A stretch of DNA of 61,643 bases, from positions 1 to 61,643 of the IMG/VR virus record IMGVR_UViG_3300034691_000060; one strand, given 5' to 3'. Positions within the stretch are counted from its first letter, which is position 1. Every line of letters starts with the position of its first letter. This document shows, in pieces, positions 1 to 58,985 of this stretch. The translations under genes and the position numbers were made by a program. A model generated the notes under the pieces. The model made no database searches. It was not told where the DNA came from and saw only the letters and a list, made by a program, of their open reading frames with translations. This DNA comes from a virus.

Positions 1-127
1 GTGTTCCACGCGGATGCCTCGCGACATATTGGGAACTTGCATCCCGCCTTTCGGCGACGGCGGGTGCTGCTTTACGACCAGGTCTTTCGGATCGAGCATG
101 ACGATTACTCCACCGCAGCGGTCAGGT
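1..127. repeat. 127-bp exact overlap with the window end (61517..61643); circular-assembly junction
   Basis: First 127 nt read identical to last 127 nt. Unique unit is 61,516 bp. An operon runs across the junction: vWA stop at 105, next ATG at 99 (= 61615). Confidence 0.9.
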
Positions 128-1919: not shown

Positions 1920-1944
1920 GGCCCCAACCTCGTTGCTCGTTCAT

Positions 1945-1968
1945 CGAAAACCCCGAGTCCCTTCGGGG
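1945..1968 (-). terminator. hairpin plus U4 between the AAA+ and vWA genes (possible attenuator)
   Basis: Minus strand reads CCCCGA-AGGGAC-TCGGGG followed by UUUUCG. It contains copy 1 of the gene-boundary motif. Confidence 0.4.
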
Positions 1969-1983
1969 CGTGTGTCGTCGTGC

Positions 1984-3192: not shown

Positions 3193-3223
3193 GATGCGTT
3201 CTCTTGTGTGTGTCGAAATGGAA

Positions 3224-3248
3224 AGGCCGGAGCGGTTTGCCCCGGCCT
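3224..3248 (-). terminator. GC-rich hairpin followed by a U-rich tract
   Basis: Minus strand AGGCCGG-GGCAAACCGCT-CCGGCCU then UUCCAUUUCG, between the stop at 3281 and the start at 3192. Confidence 0.45.
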
Positions 3249-3280
3249 CGGTTCGCCCTCTCCCTTCGGGGCGGGTGTCG

Positions 3281-3670
3281 TTACGCCTCCGCCCTGACGA
3301 CGCGCCGGTCGACGAAAGCGAAGCCGGCATACTTGTTCCGCGTGGCTTCGTCCTTCATCGCCAGCAGATACGCATGCAATTCGGGAACGGCTTTCCCCTC
3401 GGCATCTTTCATCGCGGCATAGCACTCCACCACCAACGCGCTTCCATGCTCGGAATACGAAAGCTCGCCCTTGCAGATTCCGCAGCACGCCTTCTTCGCC
3501 TTCTCCGCGCTGCGAATCGCCTCCTCGCTCAGGATCCCGCTGTGATGGTCCGAAGCCCAGGCCACATGCCGCGGGGTGATGCAATACGGATGCGGCACGG
3601 CAATCGAATCCGCCGCCAGCTTGAAGTTGCCGTGCTCGCTCGCCTCGGGATAGGTGCCTTGGATGCTCAT
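3281..3670 (-). CDS. hypothetical protein (129 aa)
   Basis: ORF tail from MSIQGTYPE. ATGA overlap with the upstream stop at 3667. No recognisable motif. Confidence 0.65.
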   Translation of the reverse strand: MSIQGTYPEASEHGNFKLAADSIAVPHPYCITPRHVAWASDHHSGILSEEAIRSAEKAKKACCGICKGELSYSEHGSALVVECYAAMKDAEGKAVPELHAYLLAMKDEATRNKYAGFAFVDRRVVRAEA

Positions 3671-23179: not shown

Positions 23180-23463
23180 TGGACCTGGCGACACAAGCCG
23201 CACTCGCCCGCGACCTGGCTGCGATGGAAAGCAGCCCGGCGTGGGAGGCGATCCGCGCGCACCTACGCGAGGCGTCGCTGGCATCCGTCAAAGCGCTGGG
23301 GGCACCAGGGACGATGCAGGAACAACAGGTCCACTTCACCCGTGGGGCGATCTGGGCCTTCGAGGAATTGCTGGCGTTGCCGCCTCGGTTACGCCTAGCG
23401 ATCGATAACGAGATCGCCATGGTCTCGGCCAAGGCCAAGCTCGCAGATAGAGAACACACATGA
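23179..23463 (+). CDS. hypothetical protein (94 aa)
   Basis: MDLATQAALA.... ATGA junction with the scaffold gene. Confidence 0.55.
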   Translation: MDLATQAALARDLAAMESSPAWEAIRAHLREASLASVKALGAPGTMQEQQVHFTRGAIWAFEELLALPPRLRLAIDNEIAMVSAKAKLADREHT

Positions 23464-24521
23464 GCGCAACGCCCGAAGACATCATTGCCCGTATTGCCGC
23501 ATCCCAACTGGGCCCCGGCCAGCCGCCTGCCGCCGCCGCGGTGCAGACCGGTCCCGCCGGCATGCCCGAGGGCGTTCCTGCAGGACCCCCGGCACCGCCG
23601 CCCGAGCCGCCTGCGACGCCGCCGACGCCCAGCGAGATCGCACAGCAGGCGCTGGCACCCAAGGACGAGGGCACCGCCATGGGTTCGCCCGCGGTGAGCT
23701 ACAAGGTGCCGTTCGGGGAGGGCGACGAGCGCGAGCTAACGCCGGATCAGATCAAGGGGACGTTCGACCGTTACGGGGCGTTGAACCATCGGCACGCCCA
23801 ACTGAAACCCTTCGTCGATCTGGGCGACGAGCTGATGAAGCGGGCCCCGCCCGGGACCGATGCCTCGGTCATCGCCCAGGCCATGGTCAAAGCGCTGACC
23901 CAAAACGTCCAGATGGGCGGGCAGCAGCAGGCACCCGCCGCGCCGGCGCCGCAGAAGGAAACCAGTAACGAGGATCTTTCCGAGCAGCTGCAAGCCTGGG
24001 AAAGGGACAACGCCGTCAGCCTGCCGCCCGGTTACAAAGAACTCATGTCCTCCGTAACAGGGACGACGGGGCAAATGAGTGCCATGCGCCAGATGTTGGA
24101 ACAAGTTCTCGGCCAGGCCCACGGCTCCGTGCAGGCGGCGCGCGAGTCGCACCAGCAGGGGCAACAGGACGCGGTCAAGACGCGCGAGCAGCACATCATA
24201 AATAACCTTAATCGTGTGCAGCAACAGCTGGGGCTTCCGGTCGAAAGCGCCCAAGATTTTCAAATGTTTACGGCAGAACGAGGGTACACGCTGGCGGACT
24301 TCGCCGACCTCGATCTGTTGATGAAAGTGGCGAGCGACTTCAAGGCCACGATGGGCAACGGCGAGCTGGAAAGGCTGCGGGCCATTCACAGCCGACGCCA
24401 AGCTTTCACCGGGGCAGCCGGCGGGAGCCCGGGCGCAGGACCTGGGGCAGCGCCGGACCCGGGCGCGGCTCGGCTCCAGGGGTTGACCGACTTCGCAATG
24501 AAGCAACGCGGGATGTCGTAA
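23460..24521 (+). CDS. scaffolding protein (putative)
   Basis: 353 aa, Pro/Ala-rich N-terminus then helical Q/E-rich region. Lies upstream of the capsid gene. Leader GAGAACACAC. Confidence 0.6.
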   Translation: MSATPEDIIARIAASQLGPGQPPAAAAVQTGPAGMPEGVPAGPPAPPPEPPATPPTPSEIAQQALAPKDEGTAMGSPAVSYKVPFGEGDERELTPDQIKGTFDRYGALNHRHAQLKPFVDLGDELMKRAPPGTDASVIAQAMVKALTQNVQMGGQQQAPAAPAPQKETSNEDLSEQLQAWERDNAVSLPPGYKELMSSVTGTTGQMSAMRQMLEQVLGQAHGSVQAARESHQQGQQDAVKTREQHIINNLNRVQQQLGLPVESAQDFQMFTAERGYTLADFADLDLLMKVASDFKATMGNGELERLRAIHSRRQAFTGAAGGSPGAGPGAAPDPGAARLQGLTDFAMKQRGMS

Positions 24522-24531
24522 CGCAAAGAAA

Positions 24532-24568
24532 AACGCCCCGGGGGATTGCTCCTCCGAGGCGTTCTTTG
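24532..24568 (+). terminator. possible hairpin terminator after the scaffold gene
   Basis: AACGCC...GGCGTT stem followed by CTTTGG. The U-tract is weak. Confidence 0.3.
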
Positions 24569-25025
24569 GTGCCATTCCCGGCCCAGCCATGTCCTGCCGA
24601 CCCCAGCCGTGTCGGCCGCTCCCTGCCCATCCATTCGCGTCCTCGCCATTCCTTGTCGGCCGCTCCTTGCCTGTTCCGCACCCAACCCAGCCGCGCCATG
24701 TCGGCCACTCCCTGCCGGTCCGCACCGCGCCTGTCCAGTCCGTGCCACGCCGCGTCGGCCGGTCCTATCCCGACCAGGCCGCGCCAAGCCAAGCCTCTTC
24801 GGCCTGTCCTAGCCTATCCCGGCCATTCCGGGCCTTGCCGCGTCTGCCACGCCACGCCCCTCCAAGCCCCGCCTATCCTCGTCGGCCTCTCCACGCCGCA
24901 CCAGTCCCTGCCCATCCAGGCCGCGTCTGCCACGCCACGCCAAGCCCGTCCTTGCCTCGCCTCTCCCTTCCTCGCCTTGTCTGCCAGTTCTAGCCTTGCC
25001 GTGTCTGCCTTCTCCCCGACCGGCT
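24560..25025. repeat. array A: C-rich degenerate tandem repeats (~10 units of ~40-50 bp)
   Basis: Units share the core YGTC(G/T)GCC-N-CTCC-N-TGCC at 24608, 24652, 24697, 24752, 24840, 24923, 24976. The 19-mer gcgtctgccacgccacgcc is exact at 24840 and 24923. Stop-free in all six frames. Confidence 0.8.
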
Positions 25026-25040: not shown

Positions 25041-25060
25041 TGCAACCAGTCTAGGTTGCA
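25041..25060. promoter_or_regulatory. palindrome TGCAACC-N6-GGTTGCA at the end of array A
   Basis: Read directly; ~190 nt upstream of the capsid ATG. Confidence 0.35.
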
Positions 25061-25111
25061 GCCGGCACTCTGTCAAGGGCCACAGAAACCTTTCTTGGGT
25101 TCAGTTCGTAA

Positions 25112-25140
25112 TTGACTGATTGACAACGGCGGACTAACCT
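25112..25140 (+). promoter_or_regulatory. sigma70-like promoter candidate for the capsid gene
   Basis: TTGACT-N17-TAACCT in a low-GC spacer. Confidence 0.35.
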
Positions 25141-25242
25141 TCACTGCATACCTCCCCGCTCCGGCCGGGAGTCAGACGCGTTAGGCAAGCGACGGTTATC
25201 CCGCTGCCACAAGAACCTTACTGACTCTCTTATTCGGAGCGA

Positions 25243-26445
25243 ATGAACATGGGCGCACCTGTCGTACCAGGAATTAATGGACTAAGAGGCACTGGCCAAT
25301 TCAATACGGATTTCAGGCCAACAAATTATCGGCAATTGTATACCCTTCTCGAACCCAATGGCGACGCGCCATTGCAGGCCCTGCTTTCTATGGCAGGCGC
25401 CGAGTCCACCGACGATCCGAAGTATTCGAATTTTCGCGATCACATGCCGGACCGCACGCTCGTTGCATCCGCCGCCGTTGCCAGTGCATCCACTGCCACT
25501 GTGGTAATGAAGGATTCGGATGAAAATAGATTTGTCGTCGCCGGCTCTATTATCATCAGCTCGAAGACCGGCGAAGTGGCGCATGTCACCGCCTATGACG
25601 ACGCCACCAATACGCTCACCCTGGTGCGTAACATTGGCGGCACGGCCCATCAAATCGCTGCCGATGACGAATGGTTCGTTGCTGGCTTCGCAGCAAAGGA
25701 AGGCGCCGATACGCCCGAGCCGATTACATTCGATTCGACCGTTGCGTATAATTATACGCAAATTTTTAGGCAAGCCTTCTCGCTCTCCGGCACCCTCGAT
25801 CAGACCTATCTGCGCACCGGCCCCAAGGCGGACGAGATGCGTACCAAGGCGCTCAAGATCCACATGTCCGACATCGAGCGGGCAATGTTTTTCGGGCGCA
25901 AGCACATCATCAACCCGACCTCTGCCGAGCCGACACGCTTCACCGGCGGCATCATCAACGAGATCACCGGGGTCACCGACCTGGCCACGGCGACCGTCCC
26001 CGGGCGTATGTCCGAGGAAGAGTTCGACGCCCTATTGATCGATAAGATCTTCGCGTGGGGCAGCAAAGAGAAGCTGTGCTTCTGCGGTCCGAAGATTGCC
26101 GGTCACATGCAGGGAATGGGTAAAGATCGCTGGCAGCCGCAACAGGTCAGCGGGACGTATGGAATCGGGTTTGTGAGATACCAAACCTTCTCCGGCGACT
26201 TGCTGGTGCATGTCCATCCGCAATTCCGCCAGGTCCCGGGAATGGAGAACAGCGCCATCATTCTCGACTTCCCGTATATCAAATATCGTTTTTTGCAGAA
26301 TCGCGATACGCAGCTGCTCGAAGGTCGGCAGGGCAATGGCGAGGACCGCAAGAAGGACGAGTATCTGACCGAATGCGGGCTGGAGCTGCTACAGGATATG
26401 GTCCACCATTATATTAAAGGGTGGGCAAGCTATAAGGCGCCATAA
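25243..26445 (+). CDS. major capsid protein (N4 gp56/SU10-like pattern)
   Basis: 400 aa. N-terminal NGLRGTGQF..FRPTNYRQLYTLLEPNGDAPLQALLS....STDDPKY matches my memory of that capsid family. SD GGAGCGA. Strong terminator downstream. Confidence 0.8.
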   Translation: MNMGAPVVPGINGLRGTGQFNTDFRPTNYRQLYTLLEPNGDAPLQALLSMAGAESTDDPKYSNFRDHMPDRTLVASAAVASASTATVVMKDSDENRFVVAGSIIISSKTGEVAHVTAYDDATNTLTLVRNIGGTAHQIAADDEWFVAGFAAKEGADTPEPITFDSTVAYNYTQIFRQAFSLSGTLDQTYLRTGPKADEMRTKALKIHMSDIERAMFFGRKHIINPTSAEPTRFTGGIINEITGVTDLATATVPGRMSEEEFDALLIDKIFAWGSKEKLCFCGPKIAGHMQGMGKDRWQPQQVSGTYGIGFVRYQTFSGDLLVHVHPQFRQVPGMENSAIILDFPYIKYRFLQNRDTQLLEGRQGNGEDRKKDEYLTECGLELLQDMVHHYIKGWASYKAP

Positions 26446-27158: not shown

Positions 27159-28660
27159 TGCGACAGTCGCGATCTCCGGCTGGGGTCGAATACAAGGCCG
27201 TCACCTACGCCCCCTTCCTTGGCCTCGACACGATGCGCGATGTCGCGTCGATGGACACGGGCAAGTCGCAGGCGCTGACCACCCTCACCAACGGCTTCGT
27301 GGATTCGTCCGGGCAGATCGTGCGCGAGCCACCGGCGGCCCATGTGGAAGGCGCGCTTCCCTGCCGCTTCGTGCGGTTCATGGACCAAGACCTCTTCGCT
27401 TATTCGCAGGAGACCGACGCCGGGGTCAACCTGACATCCAACCGCGGGCACCTCCTAGAAGCGGCCTACCTCCCCGGGTCGCCGCTGTCCGGGTCGCTGT
27501 TCTCCGACAAGCTCTACGTGGCGTCCTTCGGCCAGGCGCTGCGGACCTACGACGGCGGCATCTGGCGCGAGTCCGAGCGCAAGGCGATTCGGGAGAACCC
27601 GCCGGCGATGGTGTGCGTGGTCAATCGGCGCCTGGCGGTCGCGGGGATGGAGCGGCATCGCTCGCAGATATGGCTGAGCCGGGTGGACCAGGCCGACACC
27701 ATGCCGGCCGACGAAGACCCGAACGACGAGAACGTGCTGCGCGCCGGGTTCATCGACATCGCCAACATGACCGACGGGCGCGAGATCGTTACAGGAATCC
27801 ATTCGTTCGAGTGGAACCGCCTGGCCGTCTTTACCGGATCCCGGGCGCTGGTCTATGTGATCGACCCGGACATCGACAAGTGGTCGATTGCCGACCAGAC
27901 CGTGGTCAACGTCGGCTGCGTGTCCAACAACACCATCGTCAATGCCGGCAACCAGCTGCTGTTCTGCTCCAAGTCCGGCGTCCATGCGATGTCCAGGTCG
28001 CAGTACAACAATGTGTCGGTGAATGCGGTCGGTATGAGCCGCTCCGTCGAGATCCTGTACCGCAGCCTGCTGTCCCAGGTCGGCAACCTGGCCTCGATCA
28101 GCGCCGTCTGGGATGCCGATACCGGCCGCTACCATGTGTTCTTCCCGGTCGCGCCGACCAAGGCCTACCGCATGACGCTGGTGCTCCCTGTGGCCCAAGA
28201 CGATCCGCCGCGTTGGGCACTGGGCGCCTACCTCAGCGCCGCCTGTGCGGACGCGCTGGACGGCGCAATGCTGCTCGGGACCCCGTCCGGCATCTACCGG
28301 CCTTTCGAGATCGGGCAGCCGATTTCCGGCAGCCCTCCGCCCGTGGATCTGGACATCCGCACGCCGATTCTGTGGTGCGGGTCGACCTCGGACATCAAGG
28401 AAAGCTACAGCTACCTGCTGCACATGACCGGCCAGGGCACCGTGAAGGTCAGTGCAACGGACGAAGAAGGCATCCCGATCATGGAGGACATCATCGATCT
28501 CGACGGGGCCGCCCAGCCGTTACGCTTCCCGATGGAGCCGCTGTCTCGGCAGTTCGAGCGCAAATTCGAGCGACGCTTCCGCGGCGTCAGGTTCCGCTTC
28601 CAGACCTCCGGCACATCGTTGGTGCGTCTGAGTGCGTTCGCCATCAATGTGAGGAAATAG
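27158..28660 (+). CDS. virion structural protein (500 aa; tail tube/nozzle-like candidate)
   Basis: Long ORF in the structural block. Repetitive beta-rich sequence. Confidence 0.7.
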   Translation: MRQSRSPAGVEYKAVTYAPFLGLDTMRDVASMDTGKSQALTTLTNGFVDSSGQIVREPPAAHVEGALPCRFVRFMDQDLFAYSQETDAGVNLTSNRGHLLEAAYLPGSPLSGSLFSDKLYVASFGQALRTYDGGIWRESERKAIRENPPAMVCVVNRRLAVAGMERHRSQIWLSRVDQADTMPADEDPNDENVLRAGFIDIANMTDGREIVTGIHSFEWNRLAVFTGSRALVYVIDPDIDKWSIADQTVVNVGCVSNNTIVNAGNQLLFCSKSGVHAMSRSQYNNVSVNAVGMSRSVEILYRSLLSQVGNLASISAVWDADTGRYHVFFPVAPTKAYRMTLVLPVAQDDPPRWALGAYLSAACADALDGAMLLGTPSGIYRPFEIGQPISGSPPPVDLDIRTPILWCGSTSDIKESYSYLLHMTGQGTVKVSATDEEGIPIMEDIIDLDGAAQPLRFPMEPLSRQFERKFERRFRGVRFRFQTSGTSLVRLSAFAINVRK

Positions 28661-28662
28661 CC

Positions 28663-30243
28663 ATGGCACGACTGCGCCAGCTGCACCCGGCCAATTACGG
28701 GTTCCCCGGCAACACGTCCGACGATTTCGAGAATGTCGTTCGCTACCTGAATGCGGCGGAGCTGGGCAATCGCACCCTGGCCGAGTTGATGGCGGTCCTG
28801 TTCGACGGGGAGGGGCACTTCCGCGGCCCGGTCGAATTCCGGGTCGATCCGCTCAATGGGCTCCAGTTCCGGGTCGGCGACTACAACCGCGCCTGCATCC
28901 CTGAGACCGAGGCGGGATGGAGCACGCTGGTCGCCTACGAGGACTTGCGCGGCTCTCCCGGGTCTTCGTGCGGGCTGGTGGCTCAGCCGCTCTATTCCAA
29001 CCGAGTGGACGCCGTGGCCACCGACGGGCAGACCGTGGTGCCGGCCGGGATCAACGCGGACACCACGCCCGTGGTTTACAAGAACGGGCTACTGAAGACC
29101 GAGGCCCACGACTACACGATCCAAATATCGGCGACCCTGCCGAGCGGGCTGCCGGCGGGAATCAGTGGAGTCGTGTTCACGGCACCCTTGGTGGCGGGCG
29201 ATCGCATCACGGTCTTCCTGGTGCTGTCGGACAAGACCAGTGCGTTTCGCCGGCAGGACTACGACATTGCGGCGCCCACGGCGGTGCTGGCCTTCACCTT
29301 CTCGGCCGCCGAATCGCTGTCGATTTACCTCAACGGCGTGTTACAGCGCGAGGGGTCGTCCGCCGACTACGTGCTGAATCAGGCGTCCGGCACGATCATG
29401 TTCGTCAATGCGCTCGTGGCCAGCGACCGGGTGAGCATCGTCGTGCTGGACAACACCACGCGCAATGCCGTGGTCGGCCTGATGCTGGCGGAGCAGTTCG
29501 TCGATCCGCTGACCGGGTTCATTCGCGGCAACCGGGTGCAGTTCGACGACGAGGGCATCCCGCCGATCAAGGTCACGGGGCTCCATGCGGCGCTGACGAT
29601 CATGGCGTCGTCCACCCTGGCGGCGACCGAGCCGAATCCGCCTACCCAGTTCTGGTTCGACACCGGCGCCAACCCGGCGCGCCTGATGTACTGGGACGGC
29701 ACCCGCTACCTCCCCAGCTCCGGCGACCTCAACCTGCCGGTCTACACGGCAGCCGATGCGCGGACCTTCCTGCAGGTGAACGGGACAGGCACGGCGCTGG
29801 TGTGGGGGGCTCCCGATCTCTCCGGGTACCTGCGCAAGACCGAGAAGGGCGCCGCCAGCGGGGTGGCGTCGCTGGACTCCCAGGGTCGCATCCCGTCTTC
29901 CCAGCTCCCCAATCCGCGCAACCGGCGGACGATCTGGAAGGAATGGACGGGCACCGTGTCGGCCAACGATGTCCACGTTCACACGCGCATCTTCATGGAA
30001 AAGGGCCAGATCGCCGGGGTGACCGCGCGGCTGGGTGCCGGCACCGGATCGATCCAGATGTCGGTGGACAACATCGATGTCGGGTCCGTCATCCCGGTCA
30101 GCGTCACCACCAACGACAGCGTGCTGGGCGCTGTGGTCCCGGTCGACGGCACCACCGTCGCCTCGACGATCAAGTTCAAGGTGACCGCCGCGGCAGCCGC
30201 TTCGAATCTCGACATCGGCATCGTCTTCGAGACCGTGGGGTAA
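28663..30243 (+). CDS. virion structural protein with T7-fibre-N-terminal-like repeats (526 aa)
   Basis: Repeats such as VVYKNGLL...DYTIQ...VVFTAPLVAGDRITVFLV and SIYLNGVLQ..DYVLN..GTIMFVNALVASDRVSIVVL. Confidence 0.7.
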   Translation: MARLRQLHPANYGFPGNTSDDFENVVRYLNAAELGNRTLAELMAVLFDGEGHFRGPVEFRVDPLNGLQFRVGDYNRACIPETEAGWSTLVAYEDLRGSPGSSCGLVAQPLYSNRVDAVATDGQTVVPAGINADTTPVVYKNGLLKTEAHDYTIQISATLPSGLPAGISGVVFTAPLVAGDRITVFLVLSDKTSAFRRQDYDIAAPTAVLAFTFSAAESLSIYLNGVLQREGSSADYVLNQASGTIMFVNALVASDRVSIVVLDNTTRNAVVGLMLAEQFVDPLTGFIRGNRVQFDDEGIPPIKVTGLHAALTIMASSTLAATEPNPPTQFWFDTGANPARLMYWDGTRYLPSSGDLNLPVYTAADARTFLQVNGTGTALVWGAPDLSGYLRKTEKGAASGVASLDSQGRIPSSQLPNPRNRRTIWKEWTGTVSANDVHVHTRIFMEKGQIAGVTARLGAGTGSIQMSVDNIDVGSVIPVSVTTNDSVLGAVVPVDGTTVASTIKFKVTAAAAASNLDIGIVFETVG

Positions 30244-34918: not shown

Positions 34919-37900
34919 ATGCCAATTTACGAGCCAGACCTGTCGCGCGTCGTCTCTCCGTCCAACGAGCTGGAGCAGGGATTCACCAAAGACATCCCGG
35001 CGAACGAACTGCTGAAAGACCGGCGCGTCCTGCAACAGATGCGGGACTACTACAACGAGACCGGCGAGTCGTTCTCCAATGACGAAGAGATGATCTCCGA
35101 GTACATGTCCGACATGCGCTGGCGCTCTGCCAATACGGTCGGCGCGGCGATGGATCTCAACACCACCGAAAACCTCACCCCCAAGGGCAAGGAGGCGTAC
35201 GCCAACCTGCTGGATGTCTTCCAGCGGGTGCCGAGCTTTTCCGATGAAGGCGGCGGCGTGCTCGGCTGGCTCACCACCTATGGCGCGGCCGGCATCCTGG
35301 ACCCCATCAACCTCGTGGGCGGGGCTGTCGGCAAGAGCGTCGGGATCGCCGGGACCAAGGCGGCGACGATTGCCGGGCAAAGCGCGCTGCGCGAGGGCAT
35401 CAAGGCGGGCGTGAAGCATGGCGCCATCCAAGAGGCGGCGGCCAATGCGGCAGCCTCCGGAGTCATCAGCGGACTGGAGCAGGAGCGCGACATCGGCCTG
35501 GGGCGCCGGGACGAGTTCTCGAAGATGGAGCTTCTTGGCGATACCGCCCTGGGCGGTGCAATCGGCGGCGTCCTGGGAGGCGGCATCGGCGGCGCGGTCG
35601 GGGCAGTGCAGGCACCGAAGCGCATCCTGGCTGAGCAGGCCCGGCAGATGGGCGAGCTGGGGCTGCCCGACGCGGCTTCGGCTCCCGGGCTGGGCGAATC
35701 GATTGGCATCGGCGCCAGGGGACTCGGGCGCGAGGCGTGGGATACCGTTGCCCGCCCGTTCGGCAAGGCCCCGAGCGAGCTGAGCCCCGAGGGGAGTGCC
35801 GGGCGGTTCGACGAATTGGCGCGCGGGCAGGCCGACCAAATCTCCGTCGCCCGGCAGGCCGAAACCGACCGGTTGGCGGCCGAAGCGGCGGCGGCGATTC
35901 CGGAAGTCGAGACTCCCCCGGTAACGCGCAACTTCGCTGCCGAGCTGGCGGCCGAGCGGAAGCATCTGGAAGACCTCCGCAAGTCGAAAGTCGACAAGGA
36001 CACCCTGGCATTCCAGCAATCTCGGGTGGACGACATCGGCGCGCGGATGCAGATCCAGCACGAAATCGACTCCGTTACGAAAGCCAAGGCGTCGATGGAA
36101 GACGGCGGGAAGGCCGACCCGGCCACGCTGTCGACCTTCACGTCCCGCCTGGAAACGCTGCAAGACGCGGCGACCCGCATCGACAACGACCCGACAACCA
36201 ACGGGCTCGAGGAACTTCGCAAGCTGCGAGGGATTCAGGCTGCGCAGGCGAAGCAAGAAGTCAACGTCGACCCCCAGGCGAAGAAAGAGGGCAACGCCGA
36301 TGCGAACGGGGAGCAGAAATCCGCTGACCAAAAGTCCCCTGAAGACACCCAAGTCGCGGGTGACCAATCCACTCAACCGAAGACAATTCCCGAAGGAACA
36401 ACGATTCCGGGGGTCACGTCCGCACAAGCCCAGCCCGAGACGCAAGGGGTAGTCCAACCGCCACCTCCGCCCCCGGCCGACCGCACTGCCGAGCTTCCGG
36501 ATCTGGCGCGGCAGTTCTACGACGTTTTCGCCGCAGATAACCCGGGGTTTGCCGATTACTTTTCAGGGAAAGTTGCTGCCGGACTCGACCCGAAAACCGT
36601 CGAACCGAAAACGCTTTTTCAGATTCACGCCGAGTTGGTGAAAGGACCCGCCACCCCTAAGCCGGACCCCGTCATCAAAGCCCAAGCGGCGGAGCGGGCG
36701 AAGACCGAGCGGCTGGCCACGGCGCCGCCCCCGGTTGCCGACCCGCGGGTGCTCGACGAGATCGAGAAGGGCCGCTACATCGGCAATGCCAGCGGGGAGA
36801 AGACCAAGGCGAAGCTTCAGGAGAACGCCCACCTGTTGACGGCCGAGGATGTCCAGGCAACGCGTAACGCCAAGGGTCTGACGGTCGGCGAGCTGGTCGA
36901 CAAGAAGGTGACCGAGCGCCGGCGACAACAAGTCGTCAATGCGAAGGAGGCGGAGAAGCAGGAGAAGGTCCGCGCCCAGCAAATCGAGGCAGAGCTGCGC
37001 GCCCAGCAAGCGTCGGCCGGAGAGAAAGCCGCCGCCGCCGAGAAGACAGTCAAGGTCGCAGAGCAAGCGTTCACGCCGATGACGCCCGAGGAAGCCAGCG
37101 CCAAGGCGATGGACTTTCTCAACACGACGATGTTCGCCGACTTGCTTAAGGGCATCGAGTCCACCGACCTCGGGCGCGAGGCGCTCGCCGCCGCGGTGGC
37201 CGTCTACCGCAACATCGGGCGCACATCCGCCGGCGTCATGGACCGCATGCTGTCCAAGATCGGCGCCGATGTGGCGGACCTCTACCGGGGCAAGCTCGAC
37301 AAGATCGAGAACCTGGTCGCCGACACGATGCGCGATGTCTATGTCGGCGCCGGGGACGATCCGCGGGTAGCCGAGCTGAAGGCGCTGGTTTACACCTTCG
37401 GGCTGAAGGCGAAGGAGGCGGCACCGCCCAAGGGTGCCACGCCGAAGGAGGCATTCCCCTACCTTGGCGGCTCGTTCGGGTCGGAGATGGAAGCCCAGGC
37501 CCACGCCACGATTCAGGCCAACAAACAGGTCATCGTCGGCTACCGAACCGCGACGGTGCCGGACCGTAACGTGGTGACCGGCGCCATCACGATGCGTCGG
37601 ATGAAAGTCCCGATCTACCAGAAGCAGGGATTCTCGGATCCCGTCCCGTGGGTGTTCTCCGGAGCGGCCGAGGAGATCGACCAGGTCGGCCGGGTGGATC
37701 TGCGCAGCGGCAAGCAACGCAAGGCGCCGAAGCGGGCGGTCCCATTTACGTCCGGCCAACGCGTTTGGTACGACCCGATCACCCGCCGCTCTTACGGCAC
37801 CATGGAGGAGCTGTTGCAGGTCCGCGACGGCAAGGGCTTCACCAGCGCCCCGGTCGCCCGCGAGGACCTGACGCCCGACCGGCAGCCCAGCGAGGCGGAG

Positions 37901-40900
37901 CAGGCTCGAGCCCAAGCGGTTATAGAGCAGAAGGCGCAGGCGGCACAGGAGCGCGTCGACGCGGCACAGGATGCCGTGACCCAAGCAGCCGACTTCCGCG
38001 ACCGTACCCCGCCGGACAGCGAGAACCTGCCAATGGCGGAGGAAGCGCTGGCCGGTGCCGAGCTGGACCTTCAGGCGGCACAGAAGACGCTGGATAGGCT
38101 CCTCGGAAAGGCGGCGCCGACACCGATCGACCGGAAGGAATTCATCCGGCTGGCCCGCACGTCCGGCGTCGATACGGCAACCGATCGGCTCCACGCCCAG
38201 ATGCTGGAACGCGAGCTGAAGCCAGCTCCAGAGGCGCCCAAGCGCGGGATCGACCGCGAGGTACGCGCCCGCAAGGTGGCGGAGATGCCGACCGAGGTTC
38301 CGACCGGGCGCCGCGGGGCCCTGTTTCCCAAGGACGGCAACATCCATGGCGTGCGGATTCTGCGCGACAAGCAGGTGGCGGAGGGAAAGACCGTCCGCGA
38401 CTTGCTGGGGGAGGAAGGCAACCCGGAAGACTTCATCGTCGGGCATGTGCCGGAGACCCTGGCCGCCGACAAGAAGAACGCCGCCGCCTACTTCGAGCCG
38501 TTCGAGTCGAAGGCCACGACCGAGGCGCCGAAGCCCAAGGGGATGAGTCGGGATTCGGCCACGATGATGCTGTTACGCGACAGCGATATTGCCGAACTGA
38601 GATCCGCCGGGTGGGCTGTCGACCCGAGCCGCACCGTCGAGTGGCTGAACCACGTTCTTGCCTTCGAGGATGCCGAAAAGTCCTGGGGATTGATTCCGAA
38701 CAAGGACACCTTCGGGGAGCATGTCGATAAGCTGCGCGCCGGGTATCGGGTGTTGTCCGAGCTGGCGCCCGGCGGGATTCTGCGCGATGTCGCGACGCGC
38801 GAAGAGGCGATTGCCGAGGTTCGGCGGATGTTCGCCAAGCAGCCGCCTGCCATCCTGGCCGAAGCCGAGCGTTTTCTGGCACGGCTGGCTGGCGATGCGT
38901 CTCCCATTCTCTCCCGCGATCCGTTGAGCCCGCCGCGTGAGGGGAAAGTCGTTCTCGGGCAGTTCCGGAAAGACCTCGACACGGCGGAAGCCAACCGCGT
39001 CTACGTCAACACGGAAACGGATGTCGCCCATCCTGTGATGGGCACGACCGCGGCGCTGCAAACGCTGTGGCACGAGGTTGCTCACTGGGCCTACATCAAC
39101 ATCCTCACCCCCGAGGACCGGCTGACCTTCTGGGAGGGGGTCGGCGAGCAGATGTACGACAAGAAAACCGGCCAGATTTCAGAGGCGGCGTTCGACCGTC
39201 TGTTAGGCCCGCGGCATAACGAAAAAGCGACCGGCGGAAACCTGACGGGGAACGGTCGCTCCGTCGTCAACGAGCTTTTCGCAGAGCAATTCGTCACCTG
39301 GATGGGCCGGGAAAGCGAAACGGTGGGAGATCCGGCGTTCTGGGGCCGCATGACCCAGATCCTCAAGGCGGTGTTCGACTGGTTCCACGGCAAGAACCCG
39401 GTCGCCCCCGAATTCGAGGCGCTGTTCTCCAAGATCGTGCCCAACGAAGAGGAGCGGATGCGGCTGGCGGCTGGCGGCGGCATGCGACTGGCCGATCTGT
39501 CCGACATCGGGCGCCATGTGCGCAGTCGAGGGCTTCAGCTCGACGATCTCGAAAACGACTTCTTCCCCGCCTGGCTGGACAGCGACCCGGCGGCCATGGT
39601 TTACCAGTCCAAAGAAGTACTGCGCCACATTGCTTCGCTGGTGCCCAGTTTCCACGGTAAGGAGAAGGCAAAGGGCAGCTTTGGGCCGCTGGCCGGGATG
39701 CGTAACGAGCTAATAGAGGCGCGCAAGGCGTTGCTCGTGGCCTTCCGGGATTCCGGCATCGAGGTCAACGAGGAAAAGCTCTCCGTCGCCGCATCCCTGG
39801 ACCGGTCCGACCCGTTCCTGACCGAGCTGACCGAGCTATTCGCGACCGGGAAAGCCGACGCCGACACGCTGGACGCCCTGTTCGAGATCCGGGCCATTCC
39901 CAAGCAGATGGAGCGGCGCATCCGGCAGGCGATGTCGGACCCACAGGCCCGCGCCAAGGTGTTGGACGATGTCGCGGCCTACGTGGAAGAGTCCCCTGTG
40001 GTTGGCGATGCGGCGGCGGACGCAGCCTTCGTGCACGAGCAACTGGGCGAAGACGGGGTCATGCGGATTGCCGACCCGCGCTATGCCGACAAGGCGCTGC
40101 GGGACCTCTTCGAGACCATGAGCCTGCCAGACCTGTTCGGCACCATGCGGGCACTTTACCGGCAGGCGTTGATCGATACCGACGGGATCGGCACGCTCAA
40201 CATGGCGGAGATCCCCGAGTCGATCCGCCAGGCCAAGACGCTGACCCCCGAGATGCTGAAGAAGCACCGCGAGCAGTTCCGGTCGCCGCCGGCGGCCATG
40301 CGTCGTTACGAGTCGCGGCTGCTGTCGTTGGGCATCGAGCCTCCGCCGCGCCGGGTGGGCGAGCCCGGGGCCAAAGCCGTCGGGCAGGAGCGGACGGACG
40401 CTACCAAGGCACGCAAAGCGCAGGCGGCAGCGGCGATCAGCCGGAGGAAGCTGACCAAGCTCGATCAAGACGGGTTGCTCGACCTGTGGCGCAAGACCGA
40501 CAGCGATGCGGACAAGCGACAGATCGCGTCCGTCCTGACCGAGAAACTCAACGCCGAAATCCCAGCGTCCGAGGCGGAAATCTACGGGCGGCAGAGCGGC
40601 CGGCGCCCCTACACCGGACTGCGCTCTCCCGAGTTGCACGCCAAAGCCATCGAGTTGTTGGATTCAGGAGACGCCGACGGGGCGCGACAGGTCGCCATGG
40701 AGATGCGGCTTCGGCAGATGAAGAAGTCCGGCGACAGTGCCGGGCTGTCGATGCTGACCTTCCGCGAAACGGCCATGCGCGACGGGATCGAGGACAGCGT
40801 CAGCGTGCCGGCGAAGGCGCCGTTGCTGATGAAGCCCCTGCTGAAGGCCATGCAGCACCGCGACCCGGCGATTGCCCGAACCCAGCGCACCCTGGCCTTC

Positions 40901-43900
40901 CGTCTGCTGTCGCTGGCCGGCGACCACCAGCTGCTGACCAACGCCCATGTGGCGGAGCTGTTGGGCTGGGACCCGCCGGAGACCGTCTCCCCGATCTCGG
41001 TGTCGGACGATGCCTACAAGGAACTCAGAAAATCGGCACGGCATCTGGCCGTGGCCACACAGCGCGGGGCGGCCGACCCGGAGGAGACCGTGGGGCAGCT
41101 GGCGAAGTTGCTGGTCCGCTCCGGCGCCCTGTCCGACCGACGCGCAGACGTCCAAAGCCTGTTCGACCGCTGGGTCGACAGCGAGGCCGGGCGCGGTGCC
41201 GCCCTGGATACCTACGACGGAATCCTCACCGATACCCCCGAGTCCTGGCTGGCGTCGCTGTGGACCAAGACGGCGTCCAACACGCCCTCGCCGCAGCCGG
41301 ACTGGGTCCTGGACATGCCCGTGGCGCCGGAGGTCTTCTCCCGCCTGACTTCGGTCGGCGCGTTCGATTCGACGGCGTACATCACCCCGCGCGTCCTGGC
41401 GGAAAAGGCGATGAGCCTGGAGCTGGCGGCGTGGAAAGCGCTTGGCGACAAGGCCGGATTCGACCGGGTCATGGCGGAGCGGGCCGCGGTCTACGACGCC
41501 CTGGAAACCGCCCTTCCGACCGGGGTCAAGATGCCCACGGTCAGCGCCAAGCAGACGCTGGCCCAAGCCAAGGCGATCTTCTCGAAGCACGACCCGGAAG
41601 TGCTCGATGCGGCGATTTCGCTGCTGTCGGGGACGGGGTTCCGCGGCGGCGAGGGGTTCCGGCTGCGCGAGGCCGACCTGAGTGGCGAGGGCGCGCGGGG
41701 AATCACGACGCTCGGCTTCCGCGGGACGGAGTCGAACGCGGTCGTCTTGTCGAATCGTTACGGAAGCATGGCGACCGGGGAGAAAAACCCGCAGTCCGGC
41801 GCGGATCGGCTCAGCACCCTGATTCACGAGGTCGGGCACTGGGCCTACTTCAACATCCTCGGGCGCGACGAGCGCGACGCGTTTTGGAAGTGGGTCGAGA
41901 CCGCCAACTTCAAGCGGGGGCCCGACGGCGGGTTCGTCCGGGAGGCGCCGCTGCTCCACACGAACCCCTCTGCCGACCCGTCGTTCGGCGGGGTGCGCTC
42001 GAATGCGGCCGAATCCCCGCAGGAAATGTTTGCCGAGCTGTTCAACGCCTGGGCGCAGTCGCGCGGGGACTCCCCCGTGGCTCAGCCGTCGTGGTGGGAC
42101 ACCTTCTCGGCCGATGTCCGGGACGTTCTGGAGTGGCACACCAATCCGATGTCGGTGCCGGACGAATTGACCCAGGTCATGTCGCGCATTCTCCCGGTCG
42201 GCGACTCGGGCATCGCGCTGCCGGTCGGGACCGCGGCGAAACTCCACGGGCTGTCGGTCAATGCCGCCTTCCCCCGGGAGCTGTTCGGGGCCGATCTCGC
42301 TGCCAAGGGGCGCGCCGTGCTGCAGGACATGACCGATGCCGCCGCCTATGTGCTCAACGGGCAGGTGGCCGACGGGGCGCTCAAGGACCGCTATCTGCGC
42401 CTGTTCTTGTACGGCGACTTGTTCGACAACACCGACAAGGCGCTGTCCCTGGATGCCCGCGTGCGCCCGGGGCGCGAGGCCGACTACGAAGCCAAGCTGC
42501 TCACGGCCATGAGCCAGACCGAGCGCGAGTCGCTGCGCCAGTGGACCCGCGGCGGGGCCGGCGAGTACCCCGACGGGTCGCCAAAGGTGCACTACCTGAC
42601 GCCCGACGGAGAGATCGTTCGGCGCACGCCGGGGGCCAAGCGCACGCCGGGGCAGCTGACGAGCCCGCGTGCCGTGGCTCTGGCGGAGCGGCGTAACGAC
42701 TTGCTGGATGCCGCAGACCAGTCGGACTTCCGGGCGGAAAACCTGCGTAACGTCTTCCGCACCAACGGCGGAGACACGCACCTGACCATGGCGCGAGAGG
42801 CAGAGGCCCGGGCCCGGCGACTGGAAGACCAGGCCAACGCCATCGAGGACCGCCTGACCGAGATGGGTGAGCCGCTGTTCTCCCCGGTCGAAGCCGTCTC
42901 CATCCGCGCCGACGATCCGCTCGACCTGAGCGATTCCGCCTGGATGGATGTCCAGTCGTCCCAGTTCGAGGACGTTGTCTCCTCCGTTGCCGCGCGGGCG
43001 GCGCAACGCTATGGCGGGGTCGACATCGAAGACGCGCTCCGCATCTACGCCAGCGCCGAATCGGTCGGCGGCACCACGGTGCGCGGCGACGTCTTCTACC
43101 AGTCGCTGCTCGATGCCGTTGCCCACTCGGTGGAGACCGACCAAGGCACCGCCAAGGCATTGGTCGATGCGTCCATGTTCGACCTCGGTCACGACGTCGT
43201 GCTGCATGCCGGCGGCCAGGTGGTGCTGCGCGATCCCAGCGTCCAGGCGCGCTCGATCAAGGGGCTGTTGGAGAACCCCGAGCCGAAGGAATCGCTGACC
43301 CCCAGCCCCGTGGCGGGCCGCACGGTCGGGTCCGTGATCCAGGCCATGGCACTGAGCGACGATGCGGCCACCCCCAAGCATGCGCTGCGCACGGCATTCG
43401 GCAGCCTGCCCCCGGCGGACCGCGAGATCGGCGACCTGTTCTCCGAAATCTCCGAAGGCGGGGTGCCCTCCGAGGCCGGGCTGACGAAGCTCCGGGAGGC
43501 CTCCCGCTCGACCCGCACCTTCGGCACCAATGCCAAGCGGATGCACCAATACGGGATGCGGTATCTCGGCAAGTACACCGAGGATTACTCCCCAGCGGTG
43601 AACCAACAGTTCGGACAGTGGTGGGCGCCGCTCGTGGACGCGTTACGCGCCGTCGAACCGGAGTCGAGCGCACTCGGACGGGCCGCCAGGAACTACGGCA
43701 AGAACCTGCTGGCGCCCTTCTCCAAGGCGGAGCAACCGGAGGCCCACGCCAAGGTCATGCGGGTGCTGCGCTACGCCCCCGGGACCACGCACTTCGACCG
43801 GCTGTGGGCGGGGCTCAAGCCCAAGGAACGCGATCTGTACAAGACGGTGCGGCAGACCTTCGGCTCCGCGCTCGACCGGCTTAAGCAAGCAGGCGTGGTC

Positions 43901-55478: not shown

Positions 55479-55570
55479 GATACCCTATCCGATACCCTAT
55501 CCGATACCCCGTAGCCTCCTGCCTTAGCCTCCTGTCAGTGCCAGTGCCAGTGCCTTAGCCTCTAGCCTCC
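55479..55570. repeat. iteron cluster (candidate replication origin)
   Basis: GATACCCTATCC x2.7 (55479-55510). TAGCCTC(C) x4 (55512, 55525, 55556, 55563). CAGTGC x3 (55536-55553). Lies between the primase gene and gene 55555..56049. Confidence 0.6.
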
Positions 55571-56049: not shown

Positions 56050-56060
56050 TGGTTGCCCAT

Positions 56061-56144: not shown

Positions 56145-56257
56145 CGCTCTATCGCTTCACTGGTCTTGCCACGCCGCGGGTGATGAATCCGCGGATGCGA
56201 TGTGGCGACACCAAGGCTAGGTCCAACCTAGCCCGGTGTCAAGCGTCGTCATTTGTG

Positions 56258-56360
56258 CCGTGTCGGCCTGGCCCAACCACTCCCGTCCTCGCCATGCCGT
56301 GCCGCGCCACGCCGCGCCGGGCCTCGTCTGCCTTACCGTGTCCGCCCGGCCGTCCTCTCC
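56258..56360. repeat. array B: short C-rich repeat block of the same family
   Basis: tgtcggcctggcccaacc... gcctcgtctgccttaccgtgtccgcc. Shares cctggcccaacc with array C. Confidence 0.6.
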
Positions 56361-56447
56361 GGGTGAGTCTCGCCGCCGTGGCGCTCCGTGATCGTCAGCG
56401 AAACCATTTCGTCGGCTCGGGCAAAATGGTCTCGCCGCGTGTTTCCC

Positions 56448-56924: not shown

Positions 56925-56957
56925 TGTCGTTACGCCTTTGTCGTTGGTGTGAGCCAT

Positions 56958-57445
56958 CCTTGGCGCCTGTGCTTTCCATTGCAACCCATCTCAGCCTAGC
57001 CGCTTCGGCCCGTCCTGGCCCAACCGCGCCTCGCCGGGCCTTGTCTGCCTGTCCCTGCCACTCCCGACCTATCCACGCCTAACCGGCCTTTCCCGGCCCC
57101 ACCGTACCCCTCCCTTCCCCGCCTTGGCTGCCTCTCCAGGCCCGTCCACGGCTCGCCTCGCCAAGCCTCGCCCCGCCGGCCTGTCCATGTCCCGCCTGAC
57201 CCAGCCTATCCTAGCCCTGTCTGCCCATCCGCTCCGCTCCCGGCCGAGCCAGTCCTGTCCTACCCTCTTCGGCCTCTCCATGCCACTCCCGTCCGCTCCG
57301 CTCCAAGCCGCGCCTTGTCGGCCTGTCCGGTCCACGCCGCGCCTGTCCCGTCCGGGCCTTGCCGCATCTGCCTTTCCATGCCTAACCGCGCCTCGCCGCG
57401 CCGCGCCTGTCCGCGCCTCGCCTCGTCTTCCGATCCGCACCGTGT
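56958..57445. repeat. array C: C-rich degenerate tandem repeats (~10 units)
   Basis: Same core family, e.g. ccttgtctgcctgtccctgcc at 57039 and ccttgtcggcctgtccggtcc at 57313. In 57001-57060: C ~48%, G ~27%, A ~5%. Begins with the 16-mer GCCATCCTTGGCGCCT (56953). Confidence 0.8.
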
Positions 57446-57469: not shown

Positions 57470-57931
57470 TTAAGCACCCAGCTCGGCAGCTGCTTGCGTT
57501 ACGGTACCAATCGCTCGATCAATCGTGAACGCCGCATCCTCCCCGAGATACCGAGCCAGCGTCCTTGCCCTGCGTAACGCATTCGAAGCTCGCATAAACT
57601 CGGCAGCAACCGCATCCCTTGCCGCATCCGCATCGGTGCGCAGCTTCGGCGTCGCGACGTACCCCTGCTCATTCGCCTCGGCGCTCGGGTCTCGCACATA
57701 GGCGGGGATAACGAACGACCTTTCTTCGACCGACACGTTCAGCTTGACGCTACGAATCAGCTGGCGCGCCTGGTACAAGCGATGCGCCCGGCCCGCCTTC
57801 TTGTCGTCCCACTCGAACTGATCGTGAATCGGACTCTTCGCCGACCTCGCCGATGCCACCACCACGTCGGCAGTAAGCCGACCGCCGCCCTCGTTTGCCA
57901 GCCGTTGCAGTTCGTCTTTGACGGCGCTCAT
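57470..57931 (-). CDS. hypothetical protein (153 aa)
   Basis: MSAVKDELQR.... ATGA coupling with the upstream gene. Confidence 0.65.
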   Translation of the reverse strand: MSAVKDELQRLANEGGGRLTADVVVASARSAKSPIHDQFEWDDKKAGRAHRLYQARQLIRSVKLNVSVEERSFVIPAYVRDPSAEANEQGYVATPKLRTDADAARDAVAAEFMRASNALRRARTLARYLGEDAAFTIDRAIGTVTQAAAELGA

Positions 57932-58731
57932 TCGGCTGCCTCTTCGGCCTTCTTGCCTTTCTTGGGCGCCGGGGTCTTGCCGCGCCGCTCGATCTCCTCG
58001 TAAAACCAAGACAGCAACCGCTCGGTCTCGATGTCGTGCGTCTCCGGGTTGGCAATCGCTTCCATCTGTGCCTCCCGAGCGCCGGCCTCAACGATCATGC
58101 GCATCTCGGGGTCATCGTTCGACACCACACGGAACCGACCGTAGTCTCCCGATCCCTTTTCGACTCGCCAATCGCCGACGCCTTGCGTGATTCCGGCCGC
58201 AGCGAATAGCTTCGCAATCGTCGTGGCATTCAGCGCCGGCTCCACAAACTCCACCGTAACGGTGGCACACCAGTCGGTGAGGATGGCCCTCGTTCGAATG
58301 TCCGGCGTTCGCTTCGCATCGGCGGACCTGACGACCGACAGGAAGACGCGGGGGATACCGAAGACCGGAACCTCAGACCCCACCACATACGCCAGCCTGC
58401 CGATCTGCGTCTTGCTGGCGCCGGGCAAATCGAGTGCCGCACCCATCGCCGCCCGCTTAAACGAAACGCCCGGCAGGTAGAGCGCCGTCGGGGCGTCCTC
58501 ATTGCGGGTCATGTAAAGCGAATTCTGAAACTCGATCAGGGGTTCGTGCTTCAGGCTCGCCGCCTTGTCCGCCGCCGTCTTCTTGCCCGGCGGGAGGATC
58601 AACACCTGCCGCGTCTTCTCGCTCATCGCATTGAAAATCAGGGGCGACTGGCCGAGAAGGTTAAGAGTTACGCGCCCTTGCTGAATGTCTAAGACATTGA
58701 TGGTCAGGGTGGGTTCTTTACGTGCAGCCAT
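57928..58731 (-). CDS. hypothetical protein (267 aa)
   Basis: Complete ORF. Leader CAACACACACATAGAGACACACACCA. Confidence 0.7.
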   Translation of the reverse strand: MAARKEPTLTINVLDIQQGRVTLNLLGQSPLIFNAMSEKTRQVLILPPGKKTAADKAASLKHEPLIEFQNSLYMTRNEDAPTALYLPGVSFKRAAMGAALDLPGASKTQIGRLAYVVGSEVPVFGIPRVFLSVVRSADAKRTPDIRTRAILTDWCATVTVEFVEPALNATTIAKLFAAAGITQGVGDWRVEKGSGDYGRFRVVSNDDPEMRMIVEAGAREAQMEAIANPETHDIETERLLSWFYEEIERRGKTPAPKKGKKAEEAAE

Positions 58732-58763: not shown

Positions 58764-58985
58764 TGCCATCCTTGGCGCCTCGCCCATCCATGCCTTTCCC
58801 AACCACGCCTCGCCGATCCATGTCGGCCTTGCCCATCCATCGCTATCCCGTCCTTGCCCTTCCGAGTCGGCCGCGCCTAGCCCAGCCCCGCCAATCCTCG
58901 CCAGTCCTCTCCTCATCTGCCAACCCTTGCCGTGTCCGCCAGCCAATCCCTGGCCGGCTCCACTCCATCAACCCTTCCTTCCCTT
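58764..58985. repeat. array D: C-rich degenerate tandem repeats (~5 units)
   Basis: Begins with the same 16-mer GCCATCCTTGGCGCCT (58765). Unit example ccatgtcggccttgcccatcc at 58818. Confidence 0.75.

Follow-up and report, generated by a model that had tools for sequence, protein, structure and literature searches.

A putative distal VIPR guide-RNA array between the head genes of a temperate CRP-810-family phage

Array A is a C-rich, degenerate repeat tract in the IMG/VR virus record IMGVR_UViG_3300034691_000060, whose 61,643 nucleotides (hereafter the window) represent a genome of 61,516 bp that was assembled as a circle, its ends overlapping by 127 bp. Our analysis suggests, with a probability of about 0.85, that this temperate phage of the CRP-810 type carries a Viral Interference Programmable Repeat (VIPR) system and that array A is one of its arrays of guide RNAs (vrRNAs), located far from the effector gene. 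VIPR, first described in 2026, is a phage-borne, RNA-guided DNA-binding system related to CRISPR ancestors and is composed of a phage-encoded minimal RAMP protein, Vipr, and of vrRNAs (bioRxiv 10.64898/2026.04.26.720920, 10.64898/2026.04.26.720927). The vrRNAs consist of 9–16 YNNGG repeats in which GGY is conserved and NN is hypervariable (bioRxiv 10.64898/2026.04.26.720920), and each repeat is bound by one Vipr protomer (bioRxiv 10.64898/2026.04.26.720927). The NN dinucleotides pair with double-stranded DNA, every third target base being skipped, and competing phages are repressed (bioRxiv 10.64898/2026.04.26.720920, 10.64898/2026.04.26.720927). The coordinates of array A and of the features associated with it are given in Table 1.

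Table 1. Features assigned to the putative VIPR system, in window coordinates
Feature	Position	Strand	Characteristics
Array A, putative vrRNA (guide) array	24569..25017	(-)	66 GGxNN pentamers (position 3: C 36, A 23, T 6, G 1); 10 landmarks GGC(C/A)GA(C/A)NN
σ70-type promoter-like site, reads into array A	25048..25076	(-)	TTGACA-N17-TAGACT; 10/12 consensus positions
Hairpin, probably a bidirectional intrinsic terminator	24529..24566	both	Folding energy; not called by the terminator scan
Array B, short, vrRNA-type, ~1.1 kb downstream of vap	56255..56375	(-)	2 landmarks
Array C, vrRNA-type, directly downstream of vap	56955..57445	(-)	7 strict-motif landmarks and two looser candidates
vap candidate, 153-aa accessory gene overlapping the vipr stop codon (ATGA)	57470..57931	(-)	Conserved downstream of vipr homologues
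vipr candidate, 267-aa Cas7/Csm3-like RAMP	57928..58731	(-)	G-loop GVGDWR (residues 184–189); thumb R146/R148
Array D, vrRNA-type, directly upstream of vipr	58765..58985	(-)	3 landmarks

Five-nucleotide register of array A

On the plus strand, the stretch 24560–25025 that contains array A is composed of 47.9% C, 22.3% G, 20.4% T and 9.4% A. The original prediction had described it as non-coding and as stop-free in all six reading frames. The former is confirmed by a period-3 power at background level, and a protein-coding reading was rejected on this ground, the open reading frames (ORFs) there being low-complexity by-products of composition. The latter is nearly, but not fully, correct, with 0–3 stops in each frame. 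A 5-nt period dominates the array, with a windowed power of 3.05 compared to 0.67 ± 0.12 in 500 dinucleotide shuffles (z = 20), while the power at other periods (i.e. 3, 4, 6, 7, 10 and 11) is only ∼0.3–0.55. Periodicity above a shuffled control is therefore present, at a period that had been missed.

Read on the minus strand, GG begins 66 of the 69 pentamers, the third position is restricted mostly to C or A (Table 1), and positions 4 and 5 (NN) are near uniform, despite a genome-wide G+C content of 64%. The 9-nt landmarks start at minus-strand coordinates 25009, 24985, 24931, 24887, 24848, 24804, 24760, 24706, 24661 and 24617, i.e. at spacings of 24, 54, 44, 39, 44, 44, 54, 45 and 44 nt, and delimit ∼10 guide units of 6–9 pentamers apiece. 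These ten landmarks, mostly 44 nt apart, correspond to the ∼10 degenerate units with a YGTC(G/T)GCC core that had been noticed earlier. A 19-mer that had been reported as repeated at 24840 and 24923 is in fact an exact 22-mer, GCCGCGTCTGCCACGCCACGCC, which starts at 24837 and 24920; the repeat itself and its 83-bp spacing stand. Within array A we found neither inverted repeats in the units nor a repeat–spacer structure, and Rfam (gathering thresholds) returned no known RNA family and no CRISPR repeat family for the whole window. The earlier label 'not CRISPR-like' is thus right for an architecture without repeat-spacers, but it misses the putative guide component of a CRISPR-related system.

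Three sister arrays with the same polarity as array A are located at 56.26–56.37, 56.96–57.44 and 58.77–58.98 kb (arrays B, C and D, respectively). A scan of the window with the pattern CC(NNKCC)x6 yielded 24 matches compared to 0.00 expected, all of them on the plus strand and all in the four arrays. Coordinates and pattern scan thus agree with the original view that array A forms one family, of shared polarity, with the three arrays in the opposite-strand module. Alignment of the four arrays, anchored on 22 landmarks, gives 1.5–2 bits for GG, 0.4–1 bit for position 3 and 0.02–0.2 bit for NN. Landmark spacings in the four arrays are mostly 9 + 5k nt (i.e. 24, 39, 44, 49, 54, 59 and 64 nt; the exceptions are 45 and 176 nt), as expected if each 9-nt landmark is followed by complete pentamers, with 6–11 pentamers between landmarks across the arrays. 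Together, the four arrays hold ∼22–24 units in ∼1.3 kb of the genome. Their pattern shows selection that keeps GG and the register while the dinucleotides diversify, unlike a decaying satellite.

The candidate vipr–vap operon and related loci

Arrays D and C directly flank a minus-strand operon of two genes that are joined by an ATGA overlap. The first gene, the vipr candidate, is the sole Cas-like gene of the window, a lone RAMP, and its 267-aa product matches no Pfam family. An AlphaFold2 (AF2) model of this protein (pLDDT 88, pTM 0.82) was compared with the PDB by Foldseek: the top 50 matches are all CRISPR RAMPs (i.e. Csm3, type VII Cas7, Cmr4 and Cmr6), and the best of them reach E = 4e-5 to 1e-3 with probabilities of 0.98–1.0. 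Chains E and F of 6IFN are among the matches, and 6IFN chain E is the query that discovered Vipr (bioRxiv 10.64898/2026.04.26.720920).

The minimal RAMP fold of Vipr combines an RRM core, a glycine-rich loop and a thumb. In the Vipr protein of Escherichia phage SUSP1, residues R138, D177, W178 and R179 hold G1 and G2, and alanine at D177 or R138 abolished silencing (bioRxiv 10.64898/2026.04.26.720927). We found the SUSP1 locus in KT454805 (vipr at 28474–29061, minus strand) and confirmed the published residue numbers there. The G-loop hexapeptide GVGDWR is identical in the 267-aa protein and SUSP1 Vipr, and hhalign aligns residues 146–202 of the former with residues 136–187 of the latter (probability 95.4%, E = 1.8e-8), pairing R148 with R138, D187 with D177, W188 with W178 and R189 with R179. 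The 267-aa protein also has an invariant-glycine block (G180–G198), and its D187 and R189 are invariant across 51 homologues. Model and alignment show a predicted Cas7-like RAMP that keeps the guanine-reading residues of SUSP1 Vipr. Homologues occur in phages of Mycobacterium, Gordonia and Pseudomonas.

The product of the second gene, the vap candidate, has 42% identity (E = 2e-37) to a protein of the metagenomic locus L131 and 33% identity (E = 6e-13) to gp53 of Mycobacterium phage Philus, and matches phrog_15946; its single-sequence AF2 model (pLDDT 48) is too poor to use. Just downstream of array C, the minus strand at 56820–56925 contains a ∼35-aa ORF for a very basic peptide, MAKAVKKPNPFSKKEAKDATDGKPKKGGGKSPKGK. 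This ORF is preceded by a GGCGCCAAGGATGGC motif, which also ends array D, ahead of vipr.

We also analysed how arrays and vipr homologues are distributed in other viral genomes. Scanning IMG/VR with CC(NNKCC)x6, i.e. with the DNA pattern alone, retrieved at least 120 loci, and many of those listed carry long NNGCC arrays. With a profile built from the 267-aa family, homologues beside the array were detected in 56 of the 120 loci listed, compared to none of 87 control loci (547 kb). The pattern could thus serve as a protein-independent detector of such systems. Among the listed loci, 55 cases were scorable: in all 55 the G-rich strand of the nearest array is the vipr coding strand, and the array–vipr distance, with a median of 40 nt, reaches at most 781 nt. 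Likewise, the five complete VIPR phages (i.e. SUSP1, Philus, LESphi2, ODay and Pipp) have intergenic arrays only beside vipr. In Philus, a (GGCNN)n array immediately precedes the vipr homologue, which explains why array A has a blastn match to this phage, and the related locus L132 shares the GGCAGA(T/C) punctuation.

Several features of these loci bear on their annotation. Annotated coding sequences overlie GGCNN arrays in Gordonia phage Pipp, where this concerns all of gp43 (L219 33093–33362), and in Philus, where it concerns the 5′ extension of gp52 (L128/L216 36664 to about 36990). Both are probably mis-annotated vrRNA arrays, and the true start of the Philus vipr homologue looks to be at L128 position 2481; arrays of the vrRNA type are evidently prone to annotation as ORFs. 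In L047 (6900–7300), arrays are interleaved with conserved hairpins reminiscent of a tRNA T-arm (C-rich strand: GTGGAGTCGAACCAC), and in L010 (650–1200) a ∼50-nt element is repeated between arrays. These interleaved modules are probably clade-specific vrRNA tails or processing signals. ARAGORN detected no tRNA genes in L047, and Rfam detected no RNA family in four array-rich IMG/VR loci.

Other candidates for the identity of array A were considered and rejected: (i) T7-type primase sites (GTGTC, TTGTC), σ54 sites and Chi-like sites; and (ii) two-tetrad G-quadruplex or i-motif DNA, a CsrA-type sponge and ToxI-type antitoxin arrays. All of them leave the invariant GG with random NN, and the linkage to a RAMP gene, unexplained.

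The array A cassette and its place in the genome

Array A is located between the stop codon of a plus-strand gene for a 353-aa scaffold-like protein (23460–24521) and the plus-strand major capsid gene (25243–26445), whose product belongs to PF17236 (SU10_MCP) and is 59% identical to that of Roseobacter phage CRP-810. The promoter-like site at the capsid-proximal end is one of three σ70-like sites detected in the array A region (0.2 expected), and it has a paralogue, TTGACA-N17-TAGCCT, at 56242–56214 on the minus strand. The hairpin at the other end folds in either orientation, at −29.2 kcal/mol (z = −3.9) for the minus strand and at −27.6 kcal/mol (z = −3.1) for the plus strand. In its minus-strand form it precedes UUUUUCUUUG, a better U-run than that of the plus strand, and this is the predicted end of the array A transcript; on the plus strand the hairpin comes after the stop codon of the scaffold-like gene. 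A simple terminator scan of the array A region did not call it.

The closest relative, L007, aligns with the window through the stop codon of the scaffold-like gene and then again from ∼25075 onwards. This indicates that the intervening ∼555 bp, which comprise the hairpin, the array and the minus-strand promoter, are an insertion. The scaffold–capsid spacer is 721 bp long here compared to 214–266 bp in CRP-810 and in four relatives from metagenomes, one of which has 76% capsid identity. In these five, the spacer is made up of a stop codon, a terminator hairpin and the conserved leader of the capsid gene. In 77 further relatives (median spacer ∼194 bp), there is no GGNNN array within 3 kb of the capsid gene. 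Array A is therefore absent from the scaffold–capsid spacer of all 82 relatives (CRP-810, the four metagenomic relatives and the 77 others). The 77 others were gathered with an alignment query; a single-protein capsid search of viral_contigs and metagenome_contigs found no close relatives. The capsid leader, ∼150 nt long, is conserved among relatives (window 25100–25242; L007 200–349; L002, L003 and L004) and includes CCCCGCT..GGGGTCAG as well as motifs of the GATGG-N-AT-CCGC type, the latter in repeated form in L003 and L004. The leader may function as a late promoter, an activator site or a structured 5′ untranslated region.

A cassette of promoter, array and terminator that lies between head genes of the opposite strand resembles a 'moron'. 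The expression of such a cassette could be uncoupled from that of the late genes and might take place in the prophage. An alternative, which we consider unlikely, is that array A derives from the arrays next to vipr, as a dead or orphaned copy that was recombined into the head-gene spacer and has no function. This would agree with its restriction to this phage among the 82 relatives, with its distance from vipr, which is unlike that of every other array examined, with target searches at chance level (see below), and with the string GGCAGA(C/T)GC GGCAA GGCCC GGA common to arrays A and C, which points to partly duplicated units. However, neutral decay would erode all positions equally, whereas GG is kept in 66 of 69 pentamers next to near-random NN, the landmark spacing still proceeds in 5-nt steps, and a near-consensus promoter and a terminator are retained in the correct orientation.

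Array A might instead act within the late plus-strand transcript, as a Rho-utilization (rut) site or insulator that halts read-through from the scaffold-like gene ahead of the capsid promoter, or through a C-rich read-through RNA that, as an antisense sponge, would switch off the guides when infection is at a late stage. A rut site is C-rich, G-poor and unstructured in the transcribed sense and does not need fine periodicity. The composition of the plus strand (48% C and 22% G, without coding signal) fits the C-rich rut-like role envisaged in the original prediction, the T-run of the plus-strand terminator is weaker here (TTCTTTGG) than the TTTTTTT of the relatives, and a position between terminator and capsid leader suits an insulator. 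Nevertheless, a rut site requires no invariant dinucleotide every 5 nt, no 9 + 5k punctuation and no minus-strand promoter of its own, and relatives manage without any such element. The sister arrays give G-rich RNA in their own operon and so are not rut sites there. The strict 5-nt register, the punctuation and the fact that the sister arrays are G-rich in their sense orientation are left unexplained by a rut site. We regard an action in the late transcript as very unlikely.

A third set of possibilities assigns array A a function as DNA, i.e. as a replication terminus or pause site, a second origin, a pac or end-recognition site, or a centromere-like protein-binding array. Array A lies about half a genome from an iteron cluster (55.48–55.63 kb), its polarity matches that of the arrays beside this cluster, and its super-unit measures ∼44 bp; the centromere-like sopC of plasmid F has 12 repeats of 43 bp. 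The arithmetic behind the antipodal position is thus correct, but no skew signal accompanies it: the cumulative GC skew of the circular unit follows the direction of the two transcription modules and does not switch at 24.7 kb. Nor is the array conserved. The 82 relatives have the same replication and packaging modules but no array in the corresponding spacer, which indicates that array A is not a terminus, origin or pac element conserved in this phage family. Moreover, the units lack inverted repeats, and in 55 of 55 unrelated loci among those listed the polarity of the array follows the strand that encodes vipr. The shared polarity had been taken to argue for a DNA-level or strand-specific role. 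It is explained more simply by the fact that all four arrays read GG-x-NN on the Vipr-encoding strand, so that the strand-specific part, independent of the surrounding mRNA, is retained and the DNA-level part is not. Similarly, the idea of a protein-binding array survives in spirit, with binding at the RNA rather than the DNA level. A function as DNA is therefore highly improbable, and a replication, packaging or terminator signal is probably not the function of array A.

The genome surrounding these features is that of a temperate phage, with a tyrosine integrase gene (60311–61111, minus strand) and a Rha/ANT antirepressor. It belongs to the CRP-810 family, which has been described previously (PMC11288001). 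The vipr candidate lies in the lysogeny/early-gene region, as do its homologues in Philus and LESphi2. An N4-like phage, suspected from a 3749-aa ORF, was rejected together with early hairpin promoters and R-loop origins, because capsid and portal are of the SU10/CRP-810 type and the phage is temperate. The 3749-aa ORF (34919–46168, plus strand) ends the structural module and is convergent with the minus-strand module; its product is possibly a virion RNA polymerase-like or giant internal protein. The minus strand at 105–3330 encodes a CobT-like VWA protein (604 aa) and an AAA_5 (CobS/MoxR-like) ATPase (448 aa), with C-rich hexamer repeats at 1197–1303 inside the CobT-like ORF. CobT-like/CobS-like auxiliary gene pairs are often seen in marine phages.

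The iteron cluster (55479–55630) contains GATACCCTATCC x2.6, CAGTGC x3.2 and GCCTCCT-type repeats. It is situated between a RepB-primase-like gene (54542–55441, minus strand) and a DnaD-like gene (55555–56049, minus strand), a site that fits a replication origin. At 56060–56245 on the minus strand, the paralogue of the array A promoter precedes a long-range inverted repeat, CCCTCAGGGCTG ... CAGCCCTGAGGG, which ends in TTTTTTT. This inverted repeat lies directly upstream of the start codon of the DnaD-like gene, has no Rfam match and looks like a structured leader or attenuator.

Guide function and comparison with known systems

As a guide array, array A would operate in five steps: (i) the host RNA polymerase would start at the minus-strand promoter (25076–25048) and transcribe the array antisense to the late genes; (ii) the transcript would stop at the hairpin (24566–24529); (iii) it would be cut at or near the GGCMGAY landmarks to give guides of ∼39–54 nt; (iv) one Vipr protomer would bind each pentamer, sequestering GG-x and exposing the NN dinucleotides; and (v) these dinucleotides would pair with the double-stranded DNA of a competing phage or prophage, every third target base being skipped, and cause repression. 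We infer transcription, processing at the landmarks, Vipr binding and DNA targeting from homology and from sequence signals.

Several observations weigh against a guide array. The strand and the ends of the array A RNA are deduced from sequence alone. Position 3 is A in ∼35% of the array A pentamers, and the pocket of SUSP1 Vipr excludes purines at this repeat position (bioRxiv 10.64898/2026.04.26.720927). Given the NNNGG-type variants that the available text of the VIPR description mentions for other clades, A at position 3 seems to argue for a variant rather than for exclusion. Furthermore, array A has the 9-nt landmark alone, without a ∼40-nt structured 3′ tail, and its units of 6–9 pentamers are at the low end of the published 9–16. 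It lies 27–33 kb from vipr, while arrays elsewhere lie within 800 bp (55 listed IMG/VR loci and the five complete VIPR phages).

Exact scans with four long guides and local scans yielded no target above chance level. Exact scans of IMG/VR and GTDB that allow for a 1-nt skip gave 0 and 2 non-homologous matches for two 9-unit guides of array A, which is chance level. The same type of scan gave a single independent match, not in wobble phase, for a 10-unit guide of array C, and no match in GTDB genomes for an 11-unit guide of array B. In local, mismatch-tolerant scans of the phage itself and its relatives, skip-1 matches were not above those for other skips or shuffled guides. The published target search used nhmmer with an NN match of at least 80% in large pangenomes, and the targets are typically codon-phased (bioRxiv 10.64898/2026.04.26.720920).

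If array A is a vrRNA array, it belongs to a recently described kind, from which it may depart by its distal, 'moron-like' cassette and by the relaxed third base of its repeats. A further variation could be a Vipr clade in which adenine is accepted at position 3 and the 9-nt GGCMGAY mark stands in for the structured tail. The system would also widen the host range of VIPR to a marine-type, temperate phage of the CRP-810 family. More tentatively, with slightly less than an even chance in our view, VIPR guide arrays can exist as dispersed, self-contained 'RNA morons' (promoter, array and terminator) that lie antisense between late structural genes, tens of kilobases from vipr. The expression of such guides could then be free of any reliance on the vipr operon or on late transcription, e.g. 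in a prophage. The published classification, in its available text, distinguishes seven VIPR types, and the surveys behind it took 20-kb windows around vipr (bioRxiv 10.64898/2026.04.26.720920). Searches centred on the vipr locus may miss guide arrays that, like array A, lie in the head-gene module far from the effector gene. If RNA morons were general, surveys of 20-kb windows would under-count guides, and cassettes might move between phages as units.

The closest comparison is with the type II VIPR system of SUSP1. Both have a phage-encoded vipr–vap operon flanked by intergenic arrays of 5-nt repeats that are co-oriented with vipr, an invariant GG with hypervariable NN, the GVGDWR loop with a thumb arginine, and σ70-type promoters or, here, promoter-like sites at the arrays. 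They differ in several respects: (i) Vipr has 267 aa here and 195 aa in SUSP1, and detectable sequence similarity is confined to the thumb/G-loop region; (ii) repeat position 3 is C, A or T here and a pyrimidine alone in SUSP1; (iii) guides are bounded here by the 9-nt landmark GGCMGAY and in SUSP1 by a ∼40-nt pseudoknotted tail; (iv) units contain 6–11 pentamers here and 9–16 in the SUSP1 system; (v) there are four arrays with ∼22–24 units here, one of them ∼30 kb from vipr on its own promoter, unlike in SUSP1; and (vi) the two vap products share no significant similarity. Variants with NNNGG repeats, tail-less 'staggered' arrays and ribozyme-interspersed arrays appear in the available text on other VIPR types (bioRxiv 10.64898/2026.04.26.720920). 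As far as that text describes them, the staggered, tail-less or NNNGG arrays resemble those studied here in having continuous pentamers, abutting guides and a relaxed position 3.

Beyond VIPR, a 5-nt period made of a conserved triplet and a 2-nt spacer is also found in the TRAP-binding RNA of the Bacillus trp leader, where (G/U)AG triplets are spaced 2–3 nt apart. TRAP binds with one subunit per repeat, as proposed for Vipr, but it is an unrelated ring protein, and its RNA is a regulatory target rather than a guide. A TRAP homologue was not seen here, although no search aimed at one was made.

CRISPR arrays consist of near-identical direct repeats of 25–40 nt that alternate with unique spacers and adjoin cas genes. 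The system described here shares with class 1 CRISPR the RAMP fold of the Cas7 backbone (e.g. Csm3 of type III-A, PDB 6IFN, and type VII Cas7), but it has no repeat–spacer array and no cas genes, and its period is 5 nt rather than 6 nt. Cas7 and Vipr each assemble into oligomers on a guide RNA, at a constant nucleotide period (bioRxiv 10.64898/2026.04.26.720920, 10.64898/2026.04.26.720927). In class 1 CRISPR, specificity resides in one contiguous spacer, whereas in the arrays described here it would be spread over the dinucleotides.

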